A stretch of 64,000 nt of DNA from an uncultured Acidimicrobiales bacterium. Its GTDB lineage: Bacteria; Actinomycetota; Acidimicrobiia; Acidimicrobiales; Hopanoidiivorantaceae. Below the pieces are notes generated by a model. The model made no database searches, was not told the DNA's origin, and saw only the letters and a program-made list of their open reading frames with translations. The stretch lies in assembly GCA_958295755.1 (NCBI GenBank), contig OY282367.1:932022-996021 (forward strand), written 5' to 3'. Shown piece by piece: positions 23 to 41,813 of this stretch. The position numbers and the translations under genes are program-made. Positions within the stretch are counted from its first letter, which is position 1. Every line of letters starts with the position of its first letter.

Positions 23-1360
23 ATGCCATATGTGCGCGACCTTCTAGCCGAAGACGCTGGCAAAAATCTCACCGAGAAGTTCGACCAACTTATGCGTGGC
101 TCAGCTCTGTTCCGTCAAGTTCCGCTGGAGGCTCGCCGAGCAGCAGGTGTGACTCGTACAGCCTGGTGGGGTTTGCCTACCCGCAATACTTTGGATCGCG
201 CCACAGCCCTGCTACCTGCTCTTCTGTACGACAGGTTGGAAGAACTTGGCATTGACTACGCCCTGCTATATCCCACTTACGGTTTAACCGTCACAGCTCA
301 CCCGGATGACGAACTTCGCACGGCAATGGCCAGAGCTTTCAACCGTTACTCAGCCGAAGTTTTTGCAGGGCTTCGTGATCGTCTGGAACCGGTAGCAGCA
401 ATACCTATGAATACACCAGAAGAAGCCTTAGCCGAACTAGATCACGCAGTTACAGAGCTAGGACTTAAGTCGGTGATGATGGCTGGAATCGTGCCCCGCC
501 CAGTGCCGGGAACTGATAATTCCAGAGCCGCCCGCTATATTGACACCGTCGGACACGACAGCCTCTACGATTATTCACCCGTCTGGGAGAAATGCGAAGA
601 GCTGAAAGTATCACCTACCTTTCATGCTGGTTCGCAAGGTCTGGGAATGAGGGTCTCACGCAGCAACTATGTCTATAACCATGTGGGCAATTTCGCTGCG
701 GCTGGGGAGGCTGCAGCGAGGTCGCTATTTTTTGGTGGGGTTCCCTTTCGCCATAAATCGCTGCGTTTTGCTTTTCTGGAAGGCGGCGTGGCTTGGGGCG
801 CAAATCTGCTAGCCGACATCATCGGACACTACGAAAAGCGCAACAAAGCCGACCTTGAGCATTACAATCCCGCCAATCTTAACCGCCCACAGATGACCGA
901 ACTCATCGGAGAATTCGGCACAGCCGAAGTTGTAAAACACCTAAACCAACTTGACGACGCCCTCATTATGCTCAGCGACCCTGAAGAGCCAACCGAAGGA
1001 CGAGATGAGTTTGGCGAAAGCGGAGTCGCTTCGGTTCAAGACATCTTAGATATCTTCACCAAGCAGTATTTCTTCGGGTGCGAAGCTGACGACCCTATGA
1101 ACGCCGTGGGTTTTGCTTCTAGCCTCGTGCCTGGTGGCAAACCTTTGGGGGCGATCTTTGCTAGTGACATCGGCCACTGGGATGTCCCTGATATGACTGG
1201 AGTGCTCCCCGAAGCCTATGAACTGCTAGAAGACGGTCACCTAACCGAAGCTCAATTCAAAGACTTCACCTTCACTAACGCTGTTCGCCTCTGGGCAGGC
1301 GCTAACTCTGATTTCTTCTCTAATACCTCTGTAGAAAGCCAAGCCAAAGCAGTTATTTGA
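23..1360 (+). CDS. Amidohydrolase-family (amidohydrolase_2-like) metal-dependent hydrolase; possibly 5'-truncated by the window edge
   Basis: 445-aa ORF. The frame stays open upstream of ATG-23 to the window edge (reads DGHHIEY, a possible HxH metal motif). FHAGS, FLEGGVAWG and SDIGHWD segments resemble TIM-barrel amidohydrolases. Family-level call only. Confidence 0.55.
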   Translation: MPYVRDLLAEDAGKNLTEKFDQLMRGSALFRQVPLEARRAAGVTRTAWWGLPTRNTLDRATALLPALLYDRLEELGIDYALLYPTYGLTVTAHPDDELRTAMARAFNRYSAEVFAGLRDRLEPVAAIPMNTPEEALAELDHAVTELGLKSVMMAGIVPRPVPGTDNSRAARYIDTVGHDSLYDYSPVWEKCEELKVSPTFHAGSQGLGMRVSRSNYVYNHVGNFAAAGEAAARSLFFGGVPFRHKSLRFAFLEGGVAWGANLLADIIGHYEKRNKADLEHYNPANLNRPQMTELIGEFGTAEVVKHLNQLDDALIMLSDPEEPTEGRDEFGESGVASVQDILDIFTKQYFFGCEADDPMNAVGFASSLVPGGKPLGAIFASDIGHWDVPDMTGVLPEAYELLEDGHLTEAQFKDFTFTNAVRLWAGANSDFFSNTSVESQAKAVI

Positions 1361-1386
1361 AGAAGATGCTTGACAACAACGGTGAG

Positions 1387-1441
1387 TGCTATAATATTTG
1401 GCAGTGTGACTTCATATGAAGGTTGCCAGCAACGCTTGATA
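1387..1441 (+). promoter_or_regulatory. Conserved promoter/leader of family copy 1: extended -10 (TGcTATAAT) plus the 12-bp palindrome CTTCATATGAAG
   Basis: tgcTATAAT at 1387-1395 and cttcatatgaag at 1410-1421. The same layout precedes copies 2-4. The second hairpin is less perfect here (cagcaacgcttgata). Confidence 0.5.
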
Positions 1442-1544
1442 CCGCAAAATACCAGGGAGGAAAAGTGATACTTCGTAAATCTAGAGAATCGTCAGGTGCG
1501 ATGCTAAGGAGTGTCACCTCTAGTACAGTGCCAGCTCTAGTACT

Positions 1545-2573
1545 ATGAAGCGGCTAGCTCAGGGCGGACATCAGGTGTCAGTTGGTGCTACTGATAAGTC
1601 AAGAAGTCTGAGTTCTGCGCCTCTATCTATAGGTGGCGGACAGGGCACCCCCCCCCGACTACGCCCTGAATCAAGCCACACCGAGAGAGGTATTACCCTT
1701 CAAACGCTTATCGTAACAGCCGTGCTGGTGCTGGTGGCTGTTGGGGCAGCATTGGTGCTGGTTGCTATCAACCGCAGCTCTAGTGATGATTTTGAAGAAG
1801 CCGGCAATATTGACATTGAAGGTAAGTGCCAGACTTGGGAAATTCACTTGGCGACGCTTGAAGCCGCAGGCCACGGCGGGCCAGAAGGCCACGGCGGGGT
1901 TTTCTCAAGCAACATAGGCTGCCTAGCCACCTGCTACTGGGAACTAACCAACTGGGCACTGAGTATCCCAAATGCTAAATGGGAACTTCATCCGGGTGCG
2001 TATTCTGTGAGGAACAGAAAAGTACCCCAAGGAACCACCAATCCGCATCCGCATGTCTCTAAGTTGTATTACCACGATGACAACAGAGCACCAGCTATCG
2101 ATCAAATACGATTAGGAGTAGTCAGCCTGAGAGTAGGCGCAGGAACACAAGAACCGTCTCGTGGTTTTGGTGCTGGTACTACTGATCATCTGCCTGGACA
2201 TACAAGTCCTGGAAACGCAGGTCCTGATAAAGATGGAAAATCGCATTATTTCCGCTTCAGACCTGGTGCAAAGGGAGCTATGGGAAATCCTGGGAGACCT
2301 CTAACACCGGCAATGATAAAGAAAGGTATAGCCACTATTGCTGAACCAAACTGGATGTCCCGTGGGAATAACCCTGGCAGTGGTGTGCTCGCTACAAACT
2401 ACCCCAAAACCAGCGGGGCAACCGATTCCGATTGGGAAAGATATCTTTGGGAAGACGAATCATGGGAAGTACGAGCCGACCCGGGTCGAGAAGTCTGCGA
2501 AATAGTAAATGTCGCCCACGACGATCTACTAGTCTGCTCCTCAGCCAAAGAGGAATGCGAATCAACTACTTAG
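1545..2573 (+). CDS. Pilin-like (class III signal-peptide-like) secreted Cys-rich variable protein, family copy 1; leader disrupted upstream
   Basis: 342-aa ORF, identical to copy 2 from SAPLSIGGGQGTPPRL to the end. It has the ERGITLQTLIVTAVLVLVAVGAALVLVAI motif, six Cys, and the conserved tail WEDESWEVRADPGREVCEIVNVAHDDLLVCSS. The family GTG start with RBS (GTG at 1465) ends at TGA 1546-1548, which overlaps ATG 1545 as ATGA. Confidence 0.7.
   Translation: MKRLAQGGHQVSVGATDKSRSLSSAPLSIGGGQGTPPRLRPESSHTERGITLQTLIVTAVLVLVAVGAALVLVAINRSSSDDFEEAGNIDIEGKCQTWEIHLATLEAAGHGGPEGHGGVFSSNIGCLATCYWELTNWALSIPNAKWELHPGAYSVRNRKVPQGTTNPHPHVSKLYYHDDNRAPAIDQIRLGVVSLRVGAGTQEPSRGFGAGTTDHLPGHTSPGNAGPDKDGKSHYFRFRPGAKGAMGNPGRPLTPAMIKKGIATIAEPNWMSRGNNPGSGVLATNYPKTSGATDSDWERYLWEDESWEVRADPGREVCEIVNVAHDDLLVCSSAKEECESTT
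1648..1656 (+). repeat. Poly-C tract (C9) in the leader codons of copy 1
   Basis: Counted by eye: gggca-CCCCCCCCC-gact; encodes TPPR. Confidence 0.9.
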
Positions 2574-2594
2574 CATTCACATCCCCTCCCTATT

Positions 2595-3053
2595 CTAGTC
2601 GGTGTCGCTAGCGGCGCGAAGTCCGAAGCCGATTTGCAATGTGTTATGGATGCCTCTAACTTCTCCTTTAATGCCTCTAACTTCTCCTTCTAGGTGCTTG
2701 ATATCGCCTGATAATCTTCCCTCTAGCTTTTCCAGTTTGACAGAGAACTCTCCCTCTAACTTTTTCAGATCGACTGACAACTGCTTGTGATCTTCGGCTA
2801 ATTTATCGAGTTTTGTGGTGGTGGCTTCTAAAGCCTTGTCGAATCTGGTGTTAGTGGCTTCTAAAGCTTGGCTGAAACTGGTGTTAGTGGCTTCTAAAGC
2901 TTGGCTGAAACTGGTGTTGGTGGCTTCTAAAGCTTGGCTGAAGCCGTTTAGCTTGACTTCATAGTTGTCTAGTAGTTTGCGGGTTAGGCAACCCAATACT
3001 CCCAGGAATGCCGCCAGTGCGATACTGCCGAGTGTGATGATTACTACTTCCAT
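2595..3053 (-). CDS. N-terminally membrane-anchored coiled-coil protein with 11-aa tandem repeats (partner gene, copy 1)
   Basis: 152 aa. The N-terminal hydrophobic helix MEVVIITLGSIALAAFLGVLGCL is followed by 4 x (F[SD][QK]ALEATNTx) and then heptad-like LEGE/VRGIKGEVRGI segments. It is convergent with copy 1, with 21 nt between the stop codons. No recognised family. Confidence 0.7.
   Translation of the reverse strand: MEVVIITLGSIALAAFLGVLGCLTRKLLDNYEVKLNGFSQALEATNTSFSQALEATNTSFSQALEATNTRFDKALEATTTKLDKLAEDHKQLSVDLKKLEGEFSVKLEKLEGRLSGDIKHLEGEVRGIKGEVRGIHNTLQIGFGLRAASDTD
2811..2942 (-). repeat. 33-bp in-frame tandem repeat, 4 units, inside the coiled-coil gene
   Basis: Units ggtgttagtggcttctaaagcttggctgaaact encode FSQALEATNTS-type 11-mers. 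Confidence 0.85.
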
Positions 3054-3224
3054 CGCTACTCCTTTCGGTGGGGGAATTTCGTGGTTTCTTTTACCTATTT
3101 GCTCATATCAGCTAGTGTAGCAAATGAAGGCTGCAATTCTGTTTAGCGAAATCTGCCGATGTAAATGTACTGCTGGAATAGCTGAAGTGATTCCAACTGA
3201 AAAGCACTAAATATAATGTGGTAG

Positions 3225-3279
3225 TGCTATAATTTATGGTGGTGTGACTTCATATGAAGGTTGCTATCAACGCTTGATA
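3225..3279 (+). promoter_or_regulatory. Conserved promoter/leader of copy 2: extended -10, 12-bp palindrome, short hairpin
   Basis: tgcTATAAT at 3225-3233, CTTCATATGAAG at 3248-3259, and tatcaa-cgc-ttgata at 3265-3279. RBS GGGAGG lies 4 nt before GTG 3303. Confidence 0.55.
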
Positions 3280-3302
3280 CCGCAAAATAACAGGGAGGAA
3301 AA

Positions 3303-4415
3303 GTGATACTTCGTAAATCCAGAGAATCGTCAGGTGCGATGCTAGGGAGTGCCAGCTCTAGTAGTATGAAGCGGCTACCTCAGGGAAGGCATCAGGCGTC
3401 AGCCGGCACTGCTGATAGCCCAGTTGATACTGCTCGCAAGCCAAGAAGTATGAGTTCTGCGCCTCTATCTATAGGTGGCGGACAGGGCACCCCCCCCCGA
3501 CTACGCCCTGAATCAAGCCACACCGAGAGAGGTATTACCCTTCAAACGCTTATCGTAACAGCCGTGCTGGTGCTGGTGGCTGTTGGGGCAGCATTGGTGC
3601 TGGTTGCTATCAACCGCAGCTCTAGTGATGATTTTGAAGAAGCCGGCAATATTGACATTGAAGGTAAGTGCCAGACTTGGGAAATTCACTTGGCGACGCT
3701 TGAAGCCGCAGGCCACGGCGGGCCAGAAGGCCACGGCGGGGTTTTCTCAAGCAACATAGGCTGCCTAGCCACCTGCTACTGGGAACTAACCAACTGGGCA
3801 CTGAGTATCCCAAATGCTAAATGGGAACTTCATCCGGGTGCGTATTCTGTGAGGAACAGAAAAGTACCCCAAGGAACCACCAATCCGCATCCGCATGTCT
3901 CTAAGTTGTATTACCACGATGACAACAGAGCACCAGCTATCGATCAAATACGATTAGGAGTAGTCAGCCTGAGAGTAGGCGCAGGAACACAAGAACCGTC
4001 TCGTGGTTTTGGTGCTGGTACTACTGATCATCTGCCTGGACATACAAGTCCTGGAAACGCAGGTCCTGATAAAGATGGAAAATCGCATTATTTCCGCTTC
4101 AGACCTGGTGCAAAGGGAGCTATGGGAAATCCTGGGAGACCTCTAACACCGGCAATGATAAAGAAAGGTATAGCCACTATTGCTGAACCAAACTGGATGT
4201 CCCGTGGGAATAACCCTGGCAGTGGTGTGCTCGCTACAAACTACCCCAAAACCAGCGGGGCAACCGATTCCGATTGGGAAAGATATCTTTGGGAAGACGA
4301 ATCATGGGAAGTACGAGCCGACCCGGGTCGAGAAGTCTGCGAAATAGTAAATGTCGCCCACGACGATCTACTAGTCTGCTCCTCAGCCAAAGAGGAATGC
4401 GAATCAACTACTTAG
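3303..4415 (+). CDS. Pilin-like secreted Cys-rich variable protein, family copy 2 (intact, GTG start)
   Basis: 370 aa. Strong RBS (cagGGAGGaaaaGTG), long leader with a C9 tract, ERGITLQTLIV plus a hydrophobic helix, and the conserved N- and C-terminal modules. Confidence 0.75.
   Translation: MILRKSRESSGAMLGSASSSSMKRLPQGRHQASAGTADSPVDTARKPRSMSSAPLSIGGGQGTPPRLRPESSHTERGITLQTLIVTAVLVLVAVGAALVLVAINRSSSDDFEEAGNIDIEGKCQTWEIHLATLEAAGHGGPEGHGGVFSSNIGCLATCYWELTNWALSIPNAKWELHPGAYSVRNRKVPQGTTNPHPHVSKLYYHDDNRAPAIDQIRLGVVSLRVGAGTQEPSRGFGAGTTDHLPGHTSPGNAGPDKDGKSHYFRFRPGAKGAMGNPGRPLTPAMIKKGIATIAEPNWMSRGNNPGSGVLATNYPKTSGATDSDWERYLWEDESWEVRADPGREVCEIVNVAHDDLLVCSSAKEECESTT
3490..3498 (+). repeat. Poly-C tract (C9) in the leader codons of copy 2
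   Basis: Counted by eye; in frame with the downstream body. Confidence 0.9.
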
Positions 4416-4436
4416 CATTCACATCCCCTCCCTATT

Positions 4437-4895
4437 CTAGTCGGTGTCGCTAGCGGCGCGAAGTCCGAAGCCGATTTGCAATGTGTTATGGATGCCTCTA
4501 ACTTCTCCTTTAATGCCTCTAACTTCTCCTTCTAGGTGCTTGATATCGCCTGATAATCTTCCCTCTAGCTTTTCCAGTTTGACAGAGAACTCTCCCTCTA
4601 ACTTTTTCAGATCGACTGACAACTGCTTGTGATCTTCGGCTAATTTATCGAGTTTTGTGGTGGTGGCTTCTAAAGCCTTGTCGAATCTGGTGTTAGTGGC
4701 TTCTAAAGCTTGGCTGAAACTGGTGTTAGTGGCTTCTAAAGCTTGGCTGAAACTGGTGTTGGTGGCTTCTAAAGCTTGGCTGAAGCCGTTTAGCTTGACT
4801 TCATAGTTGTCTAGTAGTTTGCGGGTTAGGCAACCCAATACTCCCAGGAATGCCGCCAGTGCGATACTGCCGAGTGTGATGATTACTACTTCCAT
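4437..4895 (-). CDS. Membrane-anchored 11-aa-repeat coiled-coil protein (partner gene, copy 2; identical to copy 1)
   Basis: The 152-aa translation is identical to 2595-3053. Confidence 0.7.
   Translation of the reverse strand: MEVVIITLGSIALAAFLGVLGCLTRKLLDNYEVKLNGFSQALEATNTSFSQALEATNTSFSQALEATNTRFDKALEATTTKLDKLAEDHKQLSVDLKKLEGEFSVKLEKLEGRLSGDIKHLEGEVRGIKGEVRGIHNTLQIGFGLRAASDTD
4653..4784 (-). repeat. 33-bp in-frame tandem repeat, 4 units
   Basis: Same as 2811-2942, shifted by 1842 nt. Confidence 0.85.
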
Positions 4896-5066
4896 CGCTA
4901 CTCCTTTCGGTGGGGGAATTTCGTGGTTTCTTTTACCTATTTGCTCATATCAGCTAGTGTAGCAAATGAAGGCTGCAATTCTGTTTAGCGAAATCTGCCG
5001 ATGTAAATGTACTGCTGGAATAGCTGAAGTGATTCCAACTGAAAAGCACTAAATATAATGTGGTAG

Positions 5067-5121
5067 TGCTATAATTTATGGTGGTGTGACTTCATATGAA
5101 GGTTGCTATCAACGCTTGATA
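5067..5121 (+). promoter_or_regulatory. Conserved promoter/leader of copy 3
   Basis: Identical to 3225-3279, shifted by 1842 nt. Confidence 0.55.
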
Positions 5122-5144
5122 CCGCAAAATAACAGGGAGGAAAA

Positions 5145-6226
5145 GTGATACTTCGTAAATCCAGAGAATCGTCAGGTGCGATGCTAGGGAGTGCCAGCTC
5201 TAGTAGTATGAAGCGGCTACCTCAGGGAAGGCATCAGGCGTCAGCCGGCACTGCTGATAGCCCAGTTGATACTGCTCGCAAGCCAAGAAGTATGAGTTCT
5301 GCGCCTCTATCTCTAGGTGGCGGACAGGGCACCCCCCCCCGACTGGATCAAGCCATAGATCAAGCCGCGAGTCAAGCAACACCGAGAGAGGTATTACACT
5401 TCAGACGCTTATCGTAACAGCCGTGCTGGTGCTGGTGGCTGTTGGGGCAGCATTGGTGCTGGTTGCTATCAACCGCAGCTCTAGTGATGATTTTGAAGAA
5501 GCCGGCAATATTGGCATTGAAGGTAAGTGCCAGACTTGGGAAATCCACTTGGCGACGCTTGAAGCAGCAGGGCACGGCGGGCCAGAAGGCCACGGCGGGG
5601 TTTTCTCAAGCAACATAGGCTGCCTAGCACCCTGCTACTGGGATATAACAGGTTATACGGATGCTGGCGCAATTAAAACTTTATGGCCGACGGCAATTCA
5701 TGTGCGAACTTATAATAATCCCCCTTCTTGGTATTCGCACACCTCAAGGTTGTATTACCACGATGACAACAGACCACCAACTATGGACCAATATAGATTA
5801 GGGGTTGTCTACTCTAGAGGCGGTGATAGGGATCACATGGCGAATAGGAACAAAAGTTGGATGAATCCAAATTATGAAGGGAGTGAGCCGTTTTTTCGTC
5901 GGACACTTCCTGGTGTTGGAACGCACCCGGGGACTCCTTTGAGTTCGGCATGGTTATTCCATCGACACCTTAACAAGAGGCTCCCTACTGTTACAAAACC
6001 CAATTGGATATCTTATGGTCCAGATCCTGGCAACGTGCTAGCTACAAATACAGGTTTAACTGCTACCTCCGATCATGATGAATTAGCAAAATACACCTGG
6101 GAAGACGAATACTGGGAAGTACGAGCAGATCCGGGCCGAGAAGTTTGTGAGATAGTAAATGTTGCCAATGACGATCTTCTCGTCTGCTCATCAGCCAAAG
6201 AAGAATGCGAACCAGCTGATACTTAG
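5145..6226 (+). pseudogene. Pilin-like variable protein, family copy 3, frameshifted at the poly-C tract (phase-OFF allele or pseudogene)
   Basis: The leader ORF 5145-5417 stops early. The family body (…LVLVAVGAALVLVAINRSSSDDFEEAGNI… to …VCSSAKEECEPADT) continues in another frame to 6226. Relative to copy 4 the only frame-relevant difference is C9 versus C10. Confidence 0.75.
5332..5340 (+). repeat. Poly-C tract (C9) in copy 3, one C short of the in-frame length
   Basis: Counted by eye: gggca-C9-gactggatcaagcc. Confidence 0.85.
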
Positions 6227-6279
6227 AAGCGAAGACGCTAACCCCTGAGCAACTACCGAAGTGGTGAAATCCTTCGGTT

Positions 6280-6804
6280 CTAGTCGGTGTCGCTAGTGGC
6301 GCGAAGTCCGAAGCCGATTTGCAATGTGCTATGAATGCCTCTAACTTCTCTTTTAATGCCTCTAACTTCTCCTTCTAGCTGCTTCAGATCGCCTGACAAC
6401 TGCTTGTGATCTTCGGCTAATTTGTCGAGTTTTATGTTGGTGGCTTCCAAAGCCTTGTCAAATCTGCTGCTGGTGGCCTCTAAAGCCTTGTCAAATCTGA
6501 TGTTGGTGGCCTCTAAAGCACTATCAAGCTTTGTGTTGGTGGCTTCCAAAGCCTTGTCAAATCTGATATTGGTGGCCTCTAAAGCCTTGTCGAATCTGAT
6601 GTTGGTGGCTTCCAAAGCCTTGTCGAATCTGATGTTGGTGGCTTCCAAAGCACTATCAAGCTTTGTGTTGGTGGCTTCTAAAGCTTGGCTGAAGCCGTTT
6701 AGCTTGACTTCATAGTTGTCTAGTAGCTGGCGGGTTAGCCAACCCAATACTCCCAGGAATGCCGCCAGTACGATACTGCCGAATGTGATGATTACTACTT
6801 CCAT
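6280..6804 (-). CDS. Membrane-anchored 11-aa-repeat coiled-coil protein (partner gene, copy 3, expanded repeat)
   Basis: 174 aa. Same N-terminal helix and C-terminal GEVRGIKREVRGIHSTLQIGFGLRATSDTD tail, but 8 repeat units instead of 4. Confidence 0.7.
   Translation of the reverse strand: MEVVIITFGSIVLAAFLGVLGWLTRQLLDNYEVKLNGFSQALEATNTKLDSALEATNIRFDKALEATNIRFDKALEATNIRFDKALEATNTKLDSALEATNIRFDKALEATSSRFDKALEATNIKLDKLAEDHKQLSGDLKQLEGEVRGIKREVRGIHSTLQIGFGLRATSDTD
6430..6693 (-). repeat. 33-bp in-frame tandem repeat, 8 units
   Basis: Encodes FSQALEATNTK/LDSALEATNIR/FDKALEATNIR… 11-mers. Confidence 0.85.
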
Positions 6805-6912
6805 CGCTACTCCTTTCAGTGGGGGCGGTTTCTTTTACCTATTTGCTCATATCAGCTAGTGTAGCAAATGAAGGCTGCAATTCTGTCTAACGAAATCTGC
6901 CGACAGCGACTA

Positions 6913-6988
6913 TCTGGGAAATACATTTATCGACGCTTGAAGCAGCAGGTCACGGCGGGCCAGAAGTCCATGGCGGTGTCTTCTGAAA
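6913..6988 (+). pseudogene. Orphan fragment of a pilin-like family gene (about 76 nt)
   Basis: ctgggaaatacatttatcgacgcttgaagcagcaggtcacggcgggccagaagtccatggcgg matches the family segment encoding WEIHLATLEAAGHGGPEGHGG. There is no start and no body. Confidence 0.6.
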
Positions 6989-6989
6989 C

Positions 6990-7218
6990 CTAGAGAGTCC
7001 CAGAATCTCGCTGCTTTGTCTCAGGGTTCAAAGGCAAAAATCTTCTGGCTTTAGTATTCCCCTCTGCAAGAATTTGGCCAGAATCCAGGAGCTTATTGAG
7101 AATTCGTCTGGTGGCAGGTATTGACTTGCCTCCTTGTGGGTAGCTCGCGCTTGAACTCCAGCTCTTCATGCTCAATGCGGCCGAAGTGCTCCCAAAATTC
7201 CTCTTCTGTGAATCGCAT
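6990..7218 (-). pseudogene. Decayed remnant of a regulator-like gene (AlbA_2-type N-terminus joined to a winged-helix-like C-terminus)
   Basis: The minus-strand ATG at 7218 gives MRFTEEEFWEHFGRIEHEELEFKRELP and then stops. A second frame (6990-7175) gives …GKSIPATRRILNKLLDSGQILAEGNTKARRFLPL. The family resemblance is by eye only. Confidence 0.3.
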
Positions 7219-7348
7219 CATAATTCTAAAGATTATACAATCTTTGGCGATTTTTAGCAATTTATGGCGATTTTTCTAAAGTTGTTAGAATTAACTGTTG
7301 GAATAGATGAAGTGATTCCACTGAATGGCACTAAATATAATGTGGTAG

Positions 7349-7403
7349 TGATATAATTTATGGTGGTGTGACTTCATATGAAGGTTACCATCAACGCTTG
7401 ATA
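7349..7403 (+). promoter_or_regulatory. Conserved promoter/leader of copy 4
   Basis: tgaTATAAT at 7349-7357, CTTCATATGAAG at 7372-7383, and atcaa-cgc-ttgat at 7390-7402. RBS GGGAGG precedes GTG 7427. Confidence 0.55.
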
Positions 7404-7426
7404 CCGCAAAATAACAGGGAGGAAAA

Positions 7427-8512
7427 GTGATACTTCGTAAATCTAGAGAATTGTCAGTTGCCAGTCTCAAGGGAGCCGGCTCTAAGCTGGCTCAGGGCGG
7501 ACATCAGGTGTTAGCCGGCACTGCTGATAGCCCAGTTGATACTGCTCGCAAGTCAAGAAGTATGAGTTCTGCGCCTCTATCTCTAAGTGGCGGACAGGAC
7601 ACCCCCCCCCCGACTGGATCAAGCCATAGATCAAGCCGCGAGTCAAGCAACAGCGAGAGAGGTATTACACTTCAGACGCTTATCGTAACAGCCGTGTTGG
7701 TGCTGGTGGCTGTTGGGGCAGCATTGGTGCTGGTTGCTATCAACCGCAGCTCTAGCGACGATTTTGAAGAAGCCGGCAATATTGGCATTGAAGGTAAGTG
7801 CCAGACTTGGGAAATCCACTTGGCGACGCTTGAAGCAGCAGGGCACGGCGGGCCAGAAGGCTACGGCGGGGTTTTCTCAAGCAACATAGGCTGCCTAGCA
7901 CCCTGCTACTGGGAACTAGGCAGCTGGAGTTCCACAAGTGCTAAATGGAGTTTTTATCCGGGTGCGTATTCTGTGAGGAATAGAGCGGGCAAGCATGTCT
8001 CTAAGTTGCATTACCACGATGACAACAGAGCACCAGCTATCAATCAAATACGATTAGGAGTAGTCAGCCTACGAGTATCAATAACAGACACAGAACCGTT
8101 TAATTATGGTGATACTGATCATCTCCCTGGAACTTCAGGTCCTGGAAGGGCAGGTCCTGATAAAGATGGAAAGTCGCATTATTTCCGCTTCAGATCTGGT
8201 TCTCCTACGCAGGGTGGAGCTAGGAGCTATTCTGGGAGACCTTTAACACAGAACATGATAGAAGCTGGGATAGACACTATTGCGGAACCTAACTGGATGT
8301 CCCGTGGGAATAACCCCGGCAGTGGTGTGCTCGCTACAAACTACCCCCAAACCAGCGGGGGAACCGATTGGGAAAGATATCTTTGGGAAGATGAATCATG
8401 GGAAGTACGAGCCGACCCGGGCCGAGAAGTCTGTGAAATAGTAAATGTCGCCCACGACGACCTTCTAGTCTGCTCTTCTGCTAAAGAAGAATGCGAACCA
8501 GCTGATACTTAG
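7427..8512 (+). CDS. Pilin-like secreted Cys-rich variable protein, family copy 4 (intact, C10 tract)
   Basis: 361 aa, with SERGITLQTLIV plus a hydrophobic helix, the conserved modules, and a distinct core. No coiled-coil partner lies downstream. Confidence 0.75.
   Translation: MILRKSRELSVASLKGAGSKLAQGGHQVLAGTADSPVDTARKSRSMSSAPLSLSGGQDTPPPTGSSHRSSRESSNSERGITLQTLIVTAVLVLVAVGAALVLVAINRSSSDDFEEAGNIGIEGKCQTWEIHLATLEAAGHGGPEGYGGVFSSNIGCLAPCYWELGSWSSTSAKWSFYPGAYSVRNRAGKHVSKLHYHDDNRAPAINQIRLGVVSLRVSITDTEPFNYGDTDHLPGTSGPGRAGPDKDGKSHYFRFRSGSPTQGGARSYSGRPLTQNMIEAGIDTIAEPNWMSRGNNPGSGVLATNYPQTSGGTDWERYLWEDESWEVRADPGREVCEIVNVAHDDLLVCSSAKEECEPADT
7602..7611 (+). repeat. Poly-C tract (C10) in the leader codons of copy 4
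   Basis: Counted by eye: ggaca-C10-gactggatcaagcc; encodes TPPP. Confidence 0.85.
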
Positions 8513-8702
8513 AAGTAAGCCATCAGATATCACAGCTTCGACTGCTACTCAACGGTGGGTTCGTATAGATGATCTTCCGCGTCAGAAGAACAGACCTGCA
8601 AATCACGATTTGACTATCTAGTAGGACTTGATATTTACTGATGGCATATCTATGAAAGCTTCTGCTAGCGTATAATGAAGGTAACCACAAAGGAGGAGTA
8701 CA

Positions 8703-8939
8703 ATGGGGAAGCCGTCACTGATTGAAAGAATGCCGACAAAAGATCCTGGCGAAATTTGGACAGCTTGGGACGGTAAAGACTACACGATACACGCCGATGG
8801 AACAACACTCATTGACGAAGGCGGGAACTATCTATCCCCCTTCGATCTTCAACCACTGCCTAACGATACTGTTGATTTCGTCGCGCCGCTAGCCTGCGCC
8901 ACGCCCGAAGATGTGGAACGGGCAATAGCGATGTCCTAG
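8703..8939 (+). CDS. Hypothetical 78-aa protein (antitoxin position upstream of the PIN remnant)
   Basis: TATAAT at about 8670 and a strong RBS (aaAGGAGGagtacaATG). No recognisable domain. Confidence 0.5.
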   Translation: MGKPSLIERMPTKDPGEIWTAWDGKDYTIHADGTTLIDEGGNYLSPFDLQPLPNDTVDFVAPLACATPEDVERAIAMS

Positions 8940-8941
8940 AA

Positions 8942-9151
8942 GTGGAAGTGGTACTTGTAGACACCTCTGCTGTTTCGGCTTTGCTTTCTGTACGTAGCAG
9001 AAAGCGCCCGTTACAGAATGCAGTATTGAGAGCAATAGCCGGCAGAAAAACTGCGGTTTCGCCTGTGATAGAGGCGGAATATAGTTCTCTTACCTATTGT
9101 AGTCTTGTAGGGGGCGGACAGTTAGGGGGTGTTCTTGCCATTCACGAATAG
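8942..9151 (+). pseudogene. Truncated VapC-like PIN-domain ORF
   Basis: It starts 2 nt after the upstream stop. The N-terminus VEVVLVDTSAVSALLS…SPVIEAEY looks like a PIN domain with its first Asp. It is only 69 aa, and the last ~20 codons are antisense to the carB 3' end. Confidence 0.4.
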
Positions 9152-12100
9152 CTTCTATGGCAGCTCTAGTTGCTGCGAGGGTGGTGAGAGTGGGGATGCC
9201 CCTGCGGGAAGTCAGTCGGCGAAGATCGGCAGTACTTTCATCTCGGCTGTCTGAAGAGGCTGCTATGACAGCTAGTGAAACTGCGCTGTTCTGCAGGAGA
9301 TCTGCTGGAGCAACTGCCTTGTCAGCTTGCGTGCCAGATGCCATATCAACTGCCTTGATTTCAAAGCCCAAATTCTCAAAGCCCGTAGCTATCTCTTCGG
9401 CTACTTCAGGCGTTTGACCGGGCAAGCACAAAATCACACTGCCTTCTAGGGGCAAGTGCGAGCCTGCAGCCATCTGGCTTTTCATAAAAGCTCTGCCAAA
9501 GCTCACGTCTATCCCCATCACTTCACCTGTAGAGCGCATCTCGGGGCCGAGCAAAGTATCAGTTTCGGGGAAGCGATTGAAAGGCAACACAGCTTCCTTT
9601 ACGGCAACATGGCCTGGAATATGATTTGGAATATGATCCGCAACACCCTCAGGCCAAAAAGTTTTTGACACCAACATTGCCTCGTCTCGAAGCTCCGTAA
9701 GGCTAGCACCGAGCATCACTCTGGCTGCTATTTTTGCCAGCGGCACACCAGTAGCTTTAGCCACAAATGGCACTGTTCTGGAAGCTCTAGGGTTTGCCTC
9801 TATCACATATACTTGATTCTCACTAACCACATATTGCACATTCAGAGGGCCGCGCACATCCAAAGCGGCTGCGATTCTAGCTGTGTAGTCCGACATAGTT
9901 TTCAAGCTCTCCTCGCTAAGAGACATCGGCGGAAGCACACAGGCACTGTCGCCAGAATGCACGCCAGCTGCTTCAACATGTTCCATGATCCCCCCGATAA
10001 GCACCTCGCCGTCTTTATCACGAACAGCATCCACATCAACCTCAACGGCATTTTCCATAAAGCGATCCAACAGCACAGGCCGCTCAGCCGACAACCCCCC
10101 TTCCTTGCCCAGAGATCGCTCTATCTCATCCATAGCCTCATCTAAGGTTTCTTGATCGTATGCCAGCACCATAGCCCTACCGCCCAACACATACGACGGG
10201 CGCACCAATAATGGAAAGCCGATTTCTTCTGCCACTTCAAAAGCTTCGGTTTTAGTGCTGGCTGTTCCGCCGGGCGGCAACAAGATGTCTTCGCGTTGGC
10301 ACAATTCAGCCCACCGCTGTCTGTCTTCTGCGATGTCTATAGCGTCGGGGCTGGTGCCCGCGATGAGTTCTTGAGGCAAATCGTGGGCCAGCTTCAGCGG
10401 AGTCTGCCCGCCGAGACCGATAATCACAGCTTCTACTCCGGGTGTGCCAGTGGCTTGTGCTACCCGCTCTTCGGCTGCTATAACAGCGAGCACATCTTCA
10501 GCTGTGAGGGGCTCGAAAAAGAGCCTGTCGCTGGTGTCGTAATCGGTAGAGACAGTTTCCGGATTGCAATTGAACATAACGGTGGCATAGCCAGCTTCTC
10601 GCAGAGCCATGCTGGCATGGACGCAGCAATAGTCAAACTCAATGCCTTGCCCGATGCGGTTCGGCCCAGCCCCCAAAATAATCACCTTGGGAAGCTCAGA
10701 AGGTAGAACTTCATCGGTATCTTCACAGGCGGAATAGTGATAAGGAGTGATAGCTTCAAACTCAGCCCCGCAAGTATCTACCGTTTTATAGACAACCTCT
10801 ACGCCGCTGCCTTTGCGAGTGGTAGACACATCTTCGGCTGAGACACCCAAGAGCCAGCCGAGCTGGGTATCGGAAAAGCCGAGTTGTTTGGCACGTCGCC
10901 AGTCAGCTGGGGTGAGTTGAGAGATGTCTGTGACCGAAGCAAGCCTCTGTCTCTCTTCCACGATGGCTAGCATTTGGTCGATAAACCACGGGTCAATTTG
11001 GGTTGCCTCATGGACTTCTCCCACGCTTGCTCCTTGGCGTAAAGCAGTTTCCATCTGAAAGATACGATCTGGAGTGGGCTCAGACATTGCCTCAAGTAGC
11101 TCAGCTATTGACATTGCCTCCCAAGCAGTTTCCCCCACATCGCAGTTGAGACCGAACCTGCCTTGTTCAAGCGAGCGAACTGCCTTTTGCAGAGATTCTG
11201 GGAATGTCCTGCCGAGTGCCATCACCTCCCCCACCGATTGCATGGCAGCCCCTAGCACTGGCGGTGTAGATGGAAACTTCTCAAATGACCAGCGAGGGAT
11301 TTTGGTCACCACATAATCAATAGTGGGTTCAAAACAAGCTGGAGTTGCTTGGGTGATGTCGTTTGGTATTTCGTCTAATGTGTATCCCACAGCTAAGCGA
11401 GCGGCGATCTTAGCTATCGGAAAGCCAGTAGCTTTAGATGCCAAAGCAGACGATCGGCTCACTCTGGGATTCATCTCAATCACCACCTGCCGCCCGTCTT
11501 GCGGGTTCACAGCGAACTGCACATTTGACCCGCCCGTTTCTACGCCAACTCTTCGCATGCATGCGAATGCAGCGTCTCGCATAGCTTGATATTCAATATC
11601 TGAAAGCGTCTGAACTGGAGCAACGGTGATGCTGTCGCCGGTGTGGACGCCCATCGGGTCAAAGTTTTCAATGGAACACACCACAACACAGTTGTCGGCT
11701 TTGTCGCGCATCACTTCAAGCTCAAACTCTTTCCAGCCGGCTATGGACTCTTCTATGAGCACTTCGTTTATTGGGCTGGCGGCGAGACCTTCGGCTAGGG
11801 CGGCATCAAACTCATGCTGGCTTTCAGCGATGGTCGCACCTTTGCCACCCAGAATGAAGGCAGGGCGGATAATCACAGGCAACCCGAGCTCAGCCACCAC
11901 AGCAAGCCCCTCTTCCATACTGCGAGCTATCCCAGAAGTCGGCACAGAAAGCCCGATGCCGATCATGGCTTCTTTGAACTGCTCTCTGTCTTCGGCTGTG
12001 GCGATGGCTTCCATGCTGGCACCGATCAGCTCTACGCTGTAAGTCTCAAGAGTGCCAGAATCCGACAAGGCTTTAGCCAAGTTGAGTGCTGTTTGCCCGC

Positions 12101-26896: not shown

Positions 26897-27874
26897 TTAG
26901 GATGTGTCCTCTTCGCATAGGTTGTCTTTTGCGGCTGAGGAGCAGACTAGTAGGTCGTCGTGGGCGACATTGACTATCTCACAGACCTCTCGGCCAGGGT
27001 CGGCTCGCACTTCCCATGATTCGTCTTCCCAAGAGTATCTTGCCAAATCGACGTCAGCTATGGTTTCAGGGTAGCCAGTAGCGAGGACACCGCTACCGGG
27101 ATTCTCACCAAAAGAAAACCAATTAGGTTCCATAATACCGGGGATACCAGCTGCTATCTGTGCCTGCGTCACAGGTCTCCCAGGAAATATATCAACTGAA
27201 GCCGCACGGCCACGTATGAAGAAATGCCATTCTTCATCTGAATATAAACCTGCAGCCTTAGCAAACGAGCCGGCACCAGGGCTTCGATGATCAAGAGGAT
27301 TTCTACCACGTATATTCGCTTCTGGTGTTGATGGTGATACTCTCGCGTTGATAACTCCTAATCGTATTTGGTCGATAGCTGGTGCTCTGTTGTCATCGTA
27401 ATAATACAACTTAGAGACATGATCATGCACAGAGCCTGGTGGTCTGTTCCTCACAGAAAACGCGCCCGGACGCGCATCGACACCAGGCCCAGTACCGCCT
27501 CCCCAATTGGTTATTTCCCAGTAGCATGGTGCTAGGCAACCTATGTTGCTTGAGAAAACACCGCCGTTGCCTTCTGGCCCGCCGCGTCCTGCTGCTTCAA
27601 GCGTCGCCAAATGAATTTCCCAAGTCTGGCACTTAGCGTCAATGTCAATATTGCCGGCTTCTTCAAAATCATCACTAGAGCTTCGGTTGATAGCAACCAA
27701 CACCAAAGCCGCCCCAACAGCCACTAGTACCAATACAGCTGTAACAATCAGCGTCTGAAGCGTGAAGCCTCTCTCGGTTTGCTTTAATCTAGCACCCCCC
27801 CCCTCCGCAGTAACCCGCAAAGACGGCAACCTCGACACAGACACCATCAACCTCCCAAACTTACGAAACACCAA
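26897..27874 (-). CDS. Pilin-like secreted Cys-rich variable protein, family copy 5 (dispersed copy)
   Basis: 325 aa. TERGFTLQTLIVTAVLVLVAVGAALVLVAINRSSSDDFEEAGNI… and …WEDESWEVRADPGREVCEIVNVAHDDLLVCSS. Short leader with a G9 tract (EGGGA). Confidence 0.75.
   Translation of the reverse strand: MVFRKFGRLMVSVSRLPSLRVTAEGGGARLKQTERGFTLQTLIVTAVLVLVAVGAALVLVAINRSSSDDFEEAGNIDIDAKCQTWEIHLATLEAAGRGGPEGNGGVFSSNIGCLAPCYWEITNWGGGTGPGVDARPGAFSVRNRPPGSVHDHVSKLYYYDDNRAPAIDQIRLGVINARVSPSTPEANIRGRNPLDHRSPGAGSFAKAAGLYSDEEWHFFIRGRAASVDIFPGRPVTQAQIAAGIPGIMEPNWFSFGENPGSGVLATGYPETIADVDLARYSWEDESWEVRADPGREVCEIVNVAHDDLLVCSSAAKDNLCEEDTS
27795..27803. repeat. Homopolymer tract: C9 on the plus strand, G9 in the copy-5 mRNA
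   Basis: Counted by eye: agca-CCCCCCCCC-tccgc. Confidence 0.9.
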
Positions 27875-41804: not shown

Positions 41805-41813
41805 CCCCCCCCC
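41805..41813. repeat. Homopolymer tract: C9 on the plus strand, G9 upstream of the oxidoreductase gene
   Basis: Counted by eye: aagca-CCCCCCCCC-gatagcc, 77 nt upstream of the ATG at 41728. The paralogous copy at about 39352-39360 has taactccc instead. Confidence 0.9.

Follow-up and report, generated by a model that had tools for sequence, protein, structure and literature searches.

Introduction

In mucosal pathogens, phase variation by homopolymer tracts is textbook knowledge, and its acceptance for Mycobacterium and Bifidobacterium is recent. In Neisseria, the opa genes, which encode outer-membrane β-barrels, carry CTCTT repeats in the region coding for their leader peptides. The pilC genes of Neisseria gonorrhoeae and N. 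meningitidis have a poly-G tract in the signal-peptide coding region, in a segment absent from the mature protein, and one-base changes in it are reported to cause RecA-independent ON/OFF frameshifts (Jonsson et al. 1991, as summarised in PMC5354566). In Bifidobacterium breve, the pilin genes bbr_0113 and bbr_1889 contain a G11/G12 tract between an open reading frame (ORF) for the signal sequence and an ORF for the LPXTG body; conservation of this tract extends across species in the genus, and the reference genome records its OFF length (PMC9187656). Reversible C/G-tract frameshifts are also a recognised adaptive mechanism in Mycobacterium tuberculosis, with phase variants in glpK (7C), in ESX-1-associated genes and in others (PMC6667613, PMC10334774, PMC11898584). 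Here we analyse a stretch of 64,000 nucleotides (nt) from contig OY282367.1 of an uncultured Acidimicrobiales bacterium (hereafter the window), in which five copies of a gene family each carry a run of C or G in their leader codons. We consider it likely that these runs are simple-sequence contingency switches, operating by slipped-strand phase variation.

The locus resembles each of these systems in part. With pilC, it shares a homopolymeric G/C run that comes after the start codon and ahead of the sequence for the mature product, which in Neisseria is a pilus-associated surface protein. Unlike pilC, the genes analysed here form an unrelated family of candidate switches in monoderm Actinomycetota rather than Proteobacteria, and number at least five per genome, every copy carrying a tract of its own, in a more opa-like arrangement. 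Like opa, they would constitute a multicopy, variable surface family with a repeat in each leader, combinatorial expression, and conserved ends flanking variable middles; unlike opa, the repeat is a homopolymer and not a pentamer, and the sequences are unrelated to those of the outer-membrane β-barrels. The B. breve pilins belong to the same phylum and likewise consist of two ORFs that are joined or split by a G-tract early in a surface-appendage gene. They differ in having LPXTG motifs, sortases and a Sec signal in place of the class III-like N-terminus found here, in tract length (11–12 nt versus 8–11 nt), and in having one gene per operon instead of many paralogs. M. tuberculosis is a further member of the Actinomycetota, but its tracts are about 7 nt long and lie in metabolic and secretion genes with no paralog array, whereas those described here lie in the leaders of a putative surface family.

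Homopolymer tracts in the leaders of five gene copies

Four of the tracts lie on the plus strand, one in each cassette of a tandem array of four that repeats every 1,842 nt. Copy 1 carries C9 at 1648–1656, in phase with the body and 26 nt ahead of the Glu-Arg-Gly codons; copy 2 carries C9 at 3490–3498, in frame; copy 3 carries C9 at 5332–5340, out of frame; and copy 4 carries C10 at 7602–7611, in frame and 43 nt ahead of the Glu-Arg-Gly codons. At the equivalent site, copy 5 (minus strand) has G9 on the gene strand (27795–27803), which reads Gly-Gly-Gly in frame and lies 31 nt before the codons for TLQTLI, a motif of the family. Reading of the window and a homopolymer scan reproduced all tract coordinates and lengths given in an initial annotation of this DNA, including the G9 of copy 5.

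The 9-C pattern CCCCCCCCC matched seven times in the window, compared with 0.27 ± 0.71 matches expected from 100 dinucleotide-preserving shuffles, none of which reached seven. Over the 64 kb, C runs of 6 nt occur five times, runs of 7 or 8 nt are absent, and there are five runs of 9 nt and a single run of 10 nt. Beyond the five family tracts and a sixth outside the family (described below), the window contains no C run longer than 6 nt, and no G run longer than 6 nt is present on its plus strand.

The cassette starts read ACAGGGAGGAAAA-GTG, a strong Shine-Dalgarno (SD) sequence with a start codon, and the tract follows 175–187 nt further on. The SD sequence, GGGAGGA, is strong and stands 4–6 nt ahead of the upstream starts; SD-linked starts lie 71–187 nt upstream of the tracts, and the motif and a hydrophobic helix are encoded 31–55 nt downstream of them. 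Copies 2, 4 and 5 are ON. Copy 2 (3303..4415, plus strand) encodes 370 amino acids (aa) from its SD-linked GTG and equals protein P0002 from Met13. Copy 4 (7427..8512, plus strand), with C10, is open from GTG 7427 through the body and encodes 361 aa (P0168), as initially annotated. Copy 5 (26897..27874, minus strand) encodes 325 aa from TTG 27874, and P0010 is the same protein from Met10.

The distance from the tract to the Glu codon (GAG) is 26 nt in copies 1 and 2 (34 nt if gagagagg is counted) and 43 nt in copies 3 and 4, and the two in-frame leader types are C9 plus 26 nt and C10 plus 43 nt. Copy 3 combines C9 with 43 nt. Its leader ORF (5145..5417, plus strand, 90 aa) runs from the SD-linked GTG through C9 to a TAA at 5415–5417, 75 nt past the tract and within sequence that encodes the helix in the other frame. 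Its body ORF (5423..6226, plus strand, 267 aa, identical to P0016) has GTG 5423 as its first start, which lies inside the membrane helix without an SD sequence, so that the GxTLQTLI motif is excluded. Addition of one C in silico, or loss of two, restores the full ORF; with the added C it opens from the same GTG 5145, 187 nt upstream of the tract. The leader end at 5417 and the one-base repair had both been proposed in the initial annotation and hold. Gain or loss of a single base in the run decides whether the start shares its frame with the helix and the domain that follows it.

Copies 1 and 2 had likewise been annotated as in frame with C9. This holds for copy 2 and for the tract-to-body part of copy 1, but not for the SD-linked GTG of copy 1. 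Although the copy 1 body is identical to that of copy 2, its leader differs by a 17-nt insertion and a 21-nt deletion, and the insertion puts GTG 1465 out of frame. Within this gene (1465..2573, plus strand), the leader ORF from GTG 1465 stops at 1546–1548, and the only start that reads through is ATG 1545, which opens a 342-aa ORF to 2573, has no SD sequence and overlaps the leader stop as ATGA. Because of this overlap, and because the ORF from the SD-linked GTG is closed, copy 1 would be expressed only with reinitiation.

Copy 3 has a mosaic structure: between the promoter region and the end of C9 (5038–5340) it is 100% identical to copy 2 (3196–3498), while its post-tract junction (5341–5400, with a 17-nt insertion) is of the copy 4 type (7612–7671). 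The 51-nt string after the tract is common to copies 3 and 4 apart from one c/g difference, as noted initially. These junctions suggest that the cassettes undergo recombination or gene conversion, possibly with crossover at the tract.

Conservation of the tracts in related genomes

A scan of the species representatives of GTDB returned 20 loci, all from Acidimicrobiia, belonging to a Candidatus (Ca.) Hopanoidivoransaceae bacterium (OZ241989.1) and to Ca. Hopanoidivorans cymbastelae (JAPYNY01). Most paralogs in these relatives carry C8–C10 or G9–G10 tracts 25–122 nt upstream of the TLQTLI codons. JGI metagenome contigs, scanned by protein pattern and by DNA pattern, gave no matches. Three further paralogs (P0012, P0014 and P0015) lie outside the window on the 2,292,181-bp contig (2.29 Mb, in NCBI and ENA) to which it belongs; judged from their protein sequences, they contain TPPR or GGG.

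We then took a census of the window together with all related loci fetched (OZ241989.1, JAPYNY01 and metagenome contigs from ENA), which covers 241.6 kb and 50 motif occurrences. G or C runs of at least 8 nt are concentrated ahead of the motif: 34 of 54 lie within 160 nt upstream of G[FIY]TLQTLI and 6 of 54 within 320 nt downstream, and several of the remaining 14 are found at the 5′ ends of neighbouring genes for leucine-rich-repeat (LRR) proteins or coiled-coil partners. Among 41 family leaders, 39 have runs of 8–11 nt and one has G7. By approximate ON/OFF calls, the tract is in frame with an upstream start in 21 of the 41 and out of frame in 20, and a one-base change restores the frame in all 20. 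About half of the family genes, each with its own tract, are therefore predicted to be OFF.

At the equivalent site, some genes have poly-C, read as Pro, and others poly-G, read as Gly; the homopolymer is pure in every case, and the phase in which it is read differs among copies. Pure runs of 8–11 nt have been kept in paralogs and in orthologs from at least three species-level lineages. Since Pro and Gly occur at the same site, it is the DNA run and not the peptide that is selected and conserved.

A shorter subfamily from Ca. Hopanoidivorans cymbastelae (L004, L005, L006 and L012) has the same N-terminal module. In this subfamily, G9 or G10 falls on Gly-rich codons within the body, 176–256 nt past the motif; one member, L006:2973 (G10), is out of frame, and deletion of one base would restore it. 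Among the Ca. Hopanoidivoransaceae relatives, an 844-aa LRR gene with two C tracts follows the family gene, one tract about 40–50 nt upstream of the LRR start and one about 27 nt inside (L001 4196–4204; L026 1327 and 1401; L027 2039 and 2114; L028 1339 and 1412; L029 2135 and 2209).

Length polymorphism between assemblies of one locus

Fixed tract lengths in related strains, which the initial annotation held to speak against switching, were not what we found. At four loci, the assembled sequences are almost identical except for single-base differences in tract length. The locus whose product begins MSLP(K/E)FEKSP has C9 and is OFF in L024 (ERZ27241686), and has C10 and is ON in L025 (ERZ27241687; 336 aa, P0128). 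These two come from different samples, and their alignment of 1,625 columns contains 2 mismatches and a single insertion or deletion (indel), located in the tract. The same locus has C11 and is OFF in L032, part of a 944-kb contig (ERZ19489101). Similarly, the P0004 locus has C9 (OFF) in L022:6998 and C10 (ON) in L032:10130, and the tract is the only indel in 1,177 columns; the P0009/P0171 locus has G9 (OFF) in L030 and G10 (ON) in L031:10148; and a distant ortholog has C9 in L029 and C10 in L001 and L026–L028. Independent assemblies of one locus thus record runs that differ by a single base.

Among four contigs named _METAG-scaffold_, the upstream tract of the LRR gene has lengths of C10, C11, C9 and C10. 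At the protein level, clusters at 90% identity repeatedly hold a long form (336–347 aa) together with a short form (260–303 aa) whose start lies within the helix. L032 and the window are syntenic, sharing in this order an amidohydrolase gene, the family array, carB, carA, efp and further genes, and the arrays compared are therefore orthologous. The k141_ (MEGAHIT-style) and _METAG-scaffold_ contigs (L024/L025 and L026–L029) were taken as short-read assemblies from their names alone. The only other assembly of copy 4, L021 (ERZ27241687, k141_11552), has an Illumina Nextera adapter (1–55) fused just before the tract; it is an assembly chimera and is uninformative on the copy 4 tract.

Phase variation as the probable function of the tracts

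The tracts of the family have the hallmarks of contingency loci. The runs reach about 8 nt or more (C9, C9, C9, C10 and G9 in the window), they are placed between a functional start and the essential part of the ORF, and their length differs at the same locus in close relatives with little other change. The initial annotation had proposed that each family member has its own homopolymer frameshift switch. Tract conservation, the OFF state of roughly half of the genes, one-base restorability and polymorphism between assemblies all support this view. Each gene comprises an SD-linked start, a disordered leader with a C/G run of 8–11 nt, the motif, the helix and a Cys-containing domain predicted to be extracytoplasmic. 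Changes in run length would arise by slipped-strand mispairing during replication and would be reversible and frequent within a population, which would then express, stochastically and in changing combinations, parts of a variable repertoire of surface proteins. The tract would sit in an unstructured segment that is perhaps removed by a prepilin-type peptidase, so that the mature protein would bear no cost.

To our knowledge, Actinomycetota lack MutS and MutL. In M. tuberculosis, frameshifts in homopolymer tracts arise about 100 times as fast as substitutions (PMC10334774). Such switches are mechanistically plausible in Actinomycetota on both grounds. The earlier statement that they are unusual for this phylum was overstated, as they are documented in M. 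tuberculosis (PMC10334774, PMC6667613) and in Bifidobacterium pilins (PMC9187656).

Several points weigh against switching by slippage. The OFF state of copy 3 may stem from recombination or mis-polishing; it need not reflect slippage, because a copy 2 leader including C9 has been joined to a copy 4-type junction. Some loci offer upstream starts in more than one frame, which is why the ON/OFF calls are approximate. The name contig_3 suggests a long-read assembler for the 944-kb contig (L031 and L032), and both this contig and the 2.29-Mb contig of the window could contain homopolymer errors. Finally, the surface exposure and the function assigned to the protein are predictions.

We consider it unlikely that a homopolymer miscall or polishing error produced the C9 of copy 3 and that the genome truly has C10 and all copies in frame. 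Such an error would be favoured by the 300 nt up to and including the tract, which are 100% identical to copy 2 in an array of 1,842-nt tandem repeats where reads map ambiguously. The source is a single 2.29-Mb contig that may be a long-read assembly, and P0016 is alone in its cluster, with no second assembly of copy 3 available for comparison. An artefact at this copy nonetheless leaves unexplained both the presence and conservation of the tracts and the family-wide pattern of 20 OFF tracts in many assemblies, including k141_ and _METAG-scaffold_ contigs. The family also shows signs of decay, namely a relic of a family gene (6915–6986, plus strand, reading WEIHLSTLEAAGHGGPEVHGGVF and a stop) between cassette 3 and copy 4, loss of the start codon in the orthologs L027, L028 and L029, the 17-nt frameshifting insertion in copy 1 and the chimeric copy 3. 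These signs would fit mutational decay without function, in which the runs are persisting hot spots and the OFF copies are pseudogenes of a redundant, recombining family. We regard this as improbable: unselected runs of 9–10 nt should erode by substitution, whereas these are kept pure, as C or as G, at 33–37% protein identity and in different genera. Moreover, OFF bodies are intact ORFs that are identical or nearly identical to ON alleles (P0008 versus P0128, P0019 versus P0139), and every OFF state is one base away from ON.

Two further explanations assign the tract a role without switching. By RNA-polymerase slippage or ribosomal −1/+1 slippage, the run could tune the amount of protein. It is general knowledge that runs of at least nine identical bases can cause transcriptional slippage (discussed in PMC9187656) and that identical CCC codons let tRNA-Pro re-pair after a shift. 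However, slippage is best documented on A/T runs, and recoding needs no change in DNA length, whereas the DNA length varies between assemblies in step with the frame. A stimulatory structure was not seen either, although no search was aimed at one. We therefore hold recoding as the sole role of the tracts to be very improbable, though it might coexist with switching as leakiness. In-frame copies read TPPR/TPPP or GGG, which might suggest that the protein requires a leader with a linker of Pro-Pro-Pro or Gly-Gly-Gly, but this is hardly credible: Pro and Gly alternate at one position, the codons are always CCC or GGG with synonymous alternatives never used, the phase of the run varies by copy and every second tract, on average, is out of frame. 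The linker reading was rejected on this codon and frame pattern. Phase variation by slipped-strand mispairing is the explanation that we favour.

Architecture of the protein and its likeness to pilins

Scans of full-length copies 4 and 5 against Pfam and NCBIfam matched no family. Among 5.8 billion proteins searched, 109 relatives were identified, every one of them from a metagenome or a metagenome-assembled genome. Alignments show a common order, with a non-conserved leader of about 30–80 codons, the invariant motif E-x-G-[F/I/Y]-T-L-Q-T-L-I, a hydrophobic helix, a conserved acidic SSSDDFEEAG segment and a Cys-containing domain. In this C-terminal domain, the cysteines and both ends are conserved and the middle is highly variable. 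Across 86 sequences, G79, T81, L82, Q83, T84 and L85 are invariant. In an AlphaFold model based on the same 86 sequences, the leader (residues 1–78) is disordered, with a predicted local distance difference test (pLDDT) score of about 40; residues 82–108 form a helix, and the globular domain has pLDDT values mostly of 85–97. A Foldseek search of this model against PDB gave no match at E < 1 and no pilin fold. The protein family is new, with no hidden Markov model (HMM) in Pfam or NCBIfam and no structural neighbour in PDB.

The initial annotation had called the body pilin-like. Its signal-type features are indeed suggestive, but no pilin HMM threshold is passed. As in class III signals, Gly stands at −1 and a hydrophobic residue at +1 of the putative cleavage site, and a helix of about 20–25 residues follows directly. 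As in type IV pilins and pseudopilins, the charged leader of the family ends in Gly and is followed by F/I/Y-T-L and a helix in which about 25 residues are hydrophobic in character. Also as in type IV pilins, the N-terminal module (Gly, aromatic residue or Ile, Thr-Leu and helix) occurs on several proteins with unrelated C-terminal bodies. In relatives, a prepilin peptidase (Peptidase_A24) gene adjoins the ortholog. Specifically, a 167-aa Peptidase_A24 gene divergently adjoins the ortholog in OZ241989.1 (L001 2292..2795, minus strand; PF01478, E = 2.8e-10), and L027 (148..651) and L029 (283..786) have the same divergent neighbour. The N-terminal segment gave sub-threshold matches to PilX_N (E = 0.007–0.009, 16.4–16.7 bits against a cutoff of 25.5) and to GspH (E = 0.017). 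Given the module on unrelated bodies, these sub-threshold matches and the A24 genes next to distant orthologs, it is a reasonable hypothesis that the N-terminus is a class III (prepilin-type) signal.

Unlike type IV pilins, the family has a long leader (30–80 aa) and lacks the prepilin Glu at +5, where Thr stands instead, with Gln at +4. The prepilin HMMs N_methyl (PF07963) and TIGR02532 gave no match, and a tblastn search found no A24 prepilin peptidase in the 64-kb window. The missing Glu at +5, HMM match, pilin fold and A24 gene in the window count against membership in the described pilin families. An LPXTG motif and a C-terminal helix are also absent, the C-termini ending in ...CSSAKEECEPADT or ...VCSSAKEECEPADT, and no sortase was present among the neighbouring genes examined.

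Novelty and possible meaning

The mechanism is already known; the protein family and the lineage, uncultivated marine Acidimicrobiia, are new. So is the scale, with five tract-bearing paralogs in the window, at least three more in the same genome and similar numbers in two other species. In the literature searched, we found no paper tying homopolymer phase variation to sponge symbionts or to Acidimicrobiia. The epithet 'cymbastelae' suggests a sponge host.

Putting these observations together, we tentatively entertain, at somewhat less than even odds, an antigenic-variation-like system of genome-wide C/G-tract switches in a marine Acidimicrobiia clade that comprises Ca. Hopanoidivoransaceae and the organism of the window. 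At its core would be a large prepilin-like family with a new fold and a hypervariable middle. A dedicated A24 peptidase would cleave these proteins and the tract-bearing leader would be discarded, while the paralogs would switch independently. Switching by tracts in 5′ regions would extend to the coiled-coil membrane proteins and LRR proteins encoded nearby. A mutualist or commensal would use such a system against host recognition or phages, which would place Opa/Pil-style variation outside pathogens and outside cultured bacteria.

If the tracts are such switches, fluctuating recognition-based selection by host phagocytes, phages or neighbours would have to be strong enough to keep dozens of mutable sites. 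An uncharacterised family with no Pfam, NCBIfam or PDB match would then be a likely interface molecule. In addition, gene callers would systematically truncate the family, with many database entries beginning inside the membrane helix.

The array and neighbouring genes

Each of the first three cassettes contains a convergent partner gene on the minus strand. Those of cassette 1 (2595..3053, 152 aa) and cassette 2 (4437..4895) are identical, and that of cassette 3 (6280..6804, 174 aa) has more 33-nt repeats. The partner proteins consist of an N-terminal membrane helix and a coiled coil encoded by these 33-nt tandem repeats, with about 3 units in cassettes 1 and 2 and about 7 in cassette 3. By eye, TGCTATAAT / TGATATAAT is conserved about 70 nt before each GTG of the family genes, and a scan of 1300–8700 for sigma-70 and terminator consensus sequences gave background levels only. 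In the syntenic relative L032, partner genes have C10 or C11 right upstream of the SD sequence (1981–1990 and 11771–11781); the corresponding site is degenerate in the window (C5-A-CC).

The sixth tract of the window, outside the family, is intergenic on the minus strand (41805–41813; G9 on the gene strand, C9 on the plus strand). It lies just past the stop of the gene for the electron transfer flavoprotein (ETF) alpha subunit (41838), and a molybdopterin oxidoreductase gene has its ATG (41728) 76 nt downstream of the tract. Its G9 is followed by TGCT, as in the G-tracts of the family. This tract could be a promoter-region or 5′-untranslated-region switch, or a relic.

Inside the array, a 78-aa gene (8703..8939) is followed by a 69-aa ORF (8942..9151) that overlaps the end of carB and has no PIN match. 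In relatives (L032 9165..9814 and L022 6034..6683), the 78-aa gene is followed by a 136-aa PIN-domain gene. The 78-aa and PIN genes are probably a toxin-antitoxin pair, and the 69-aa ORF of the window appears to be a shortened PIN gene.

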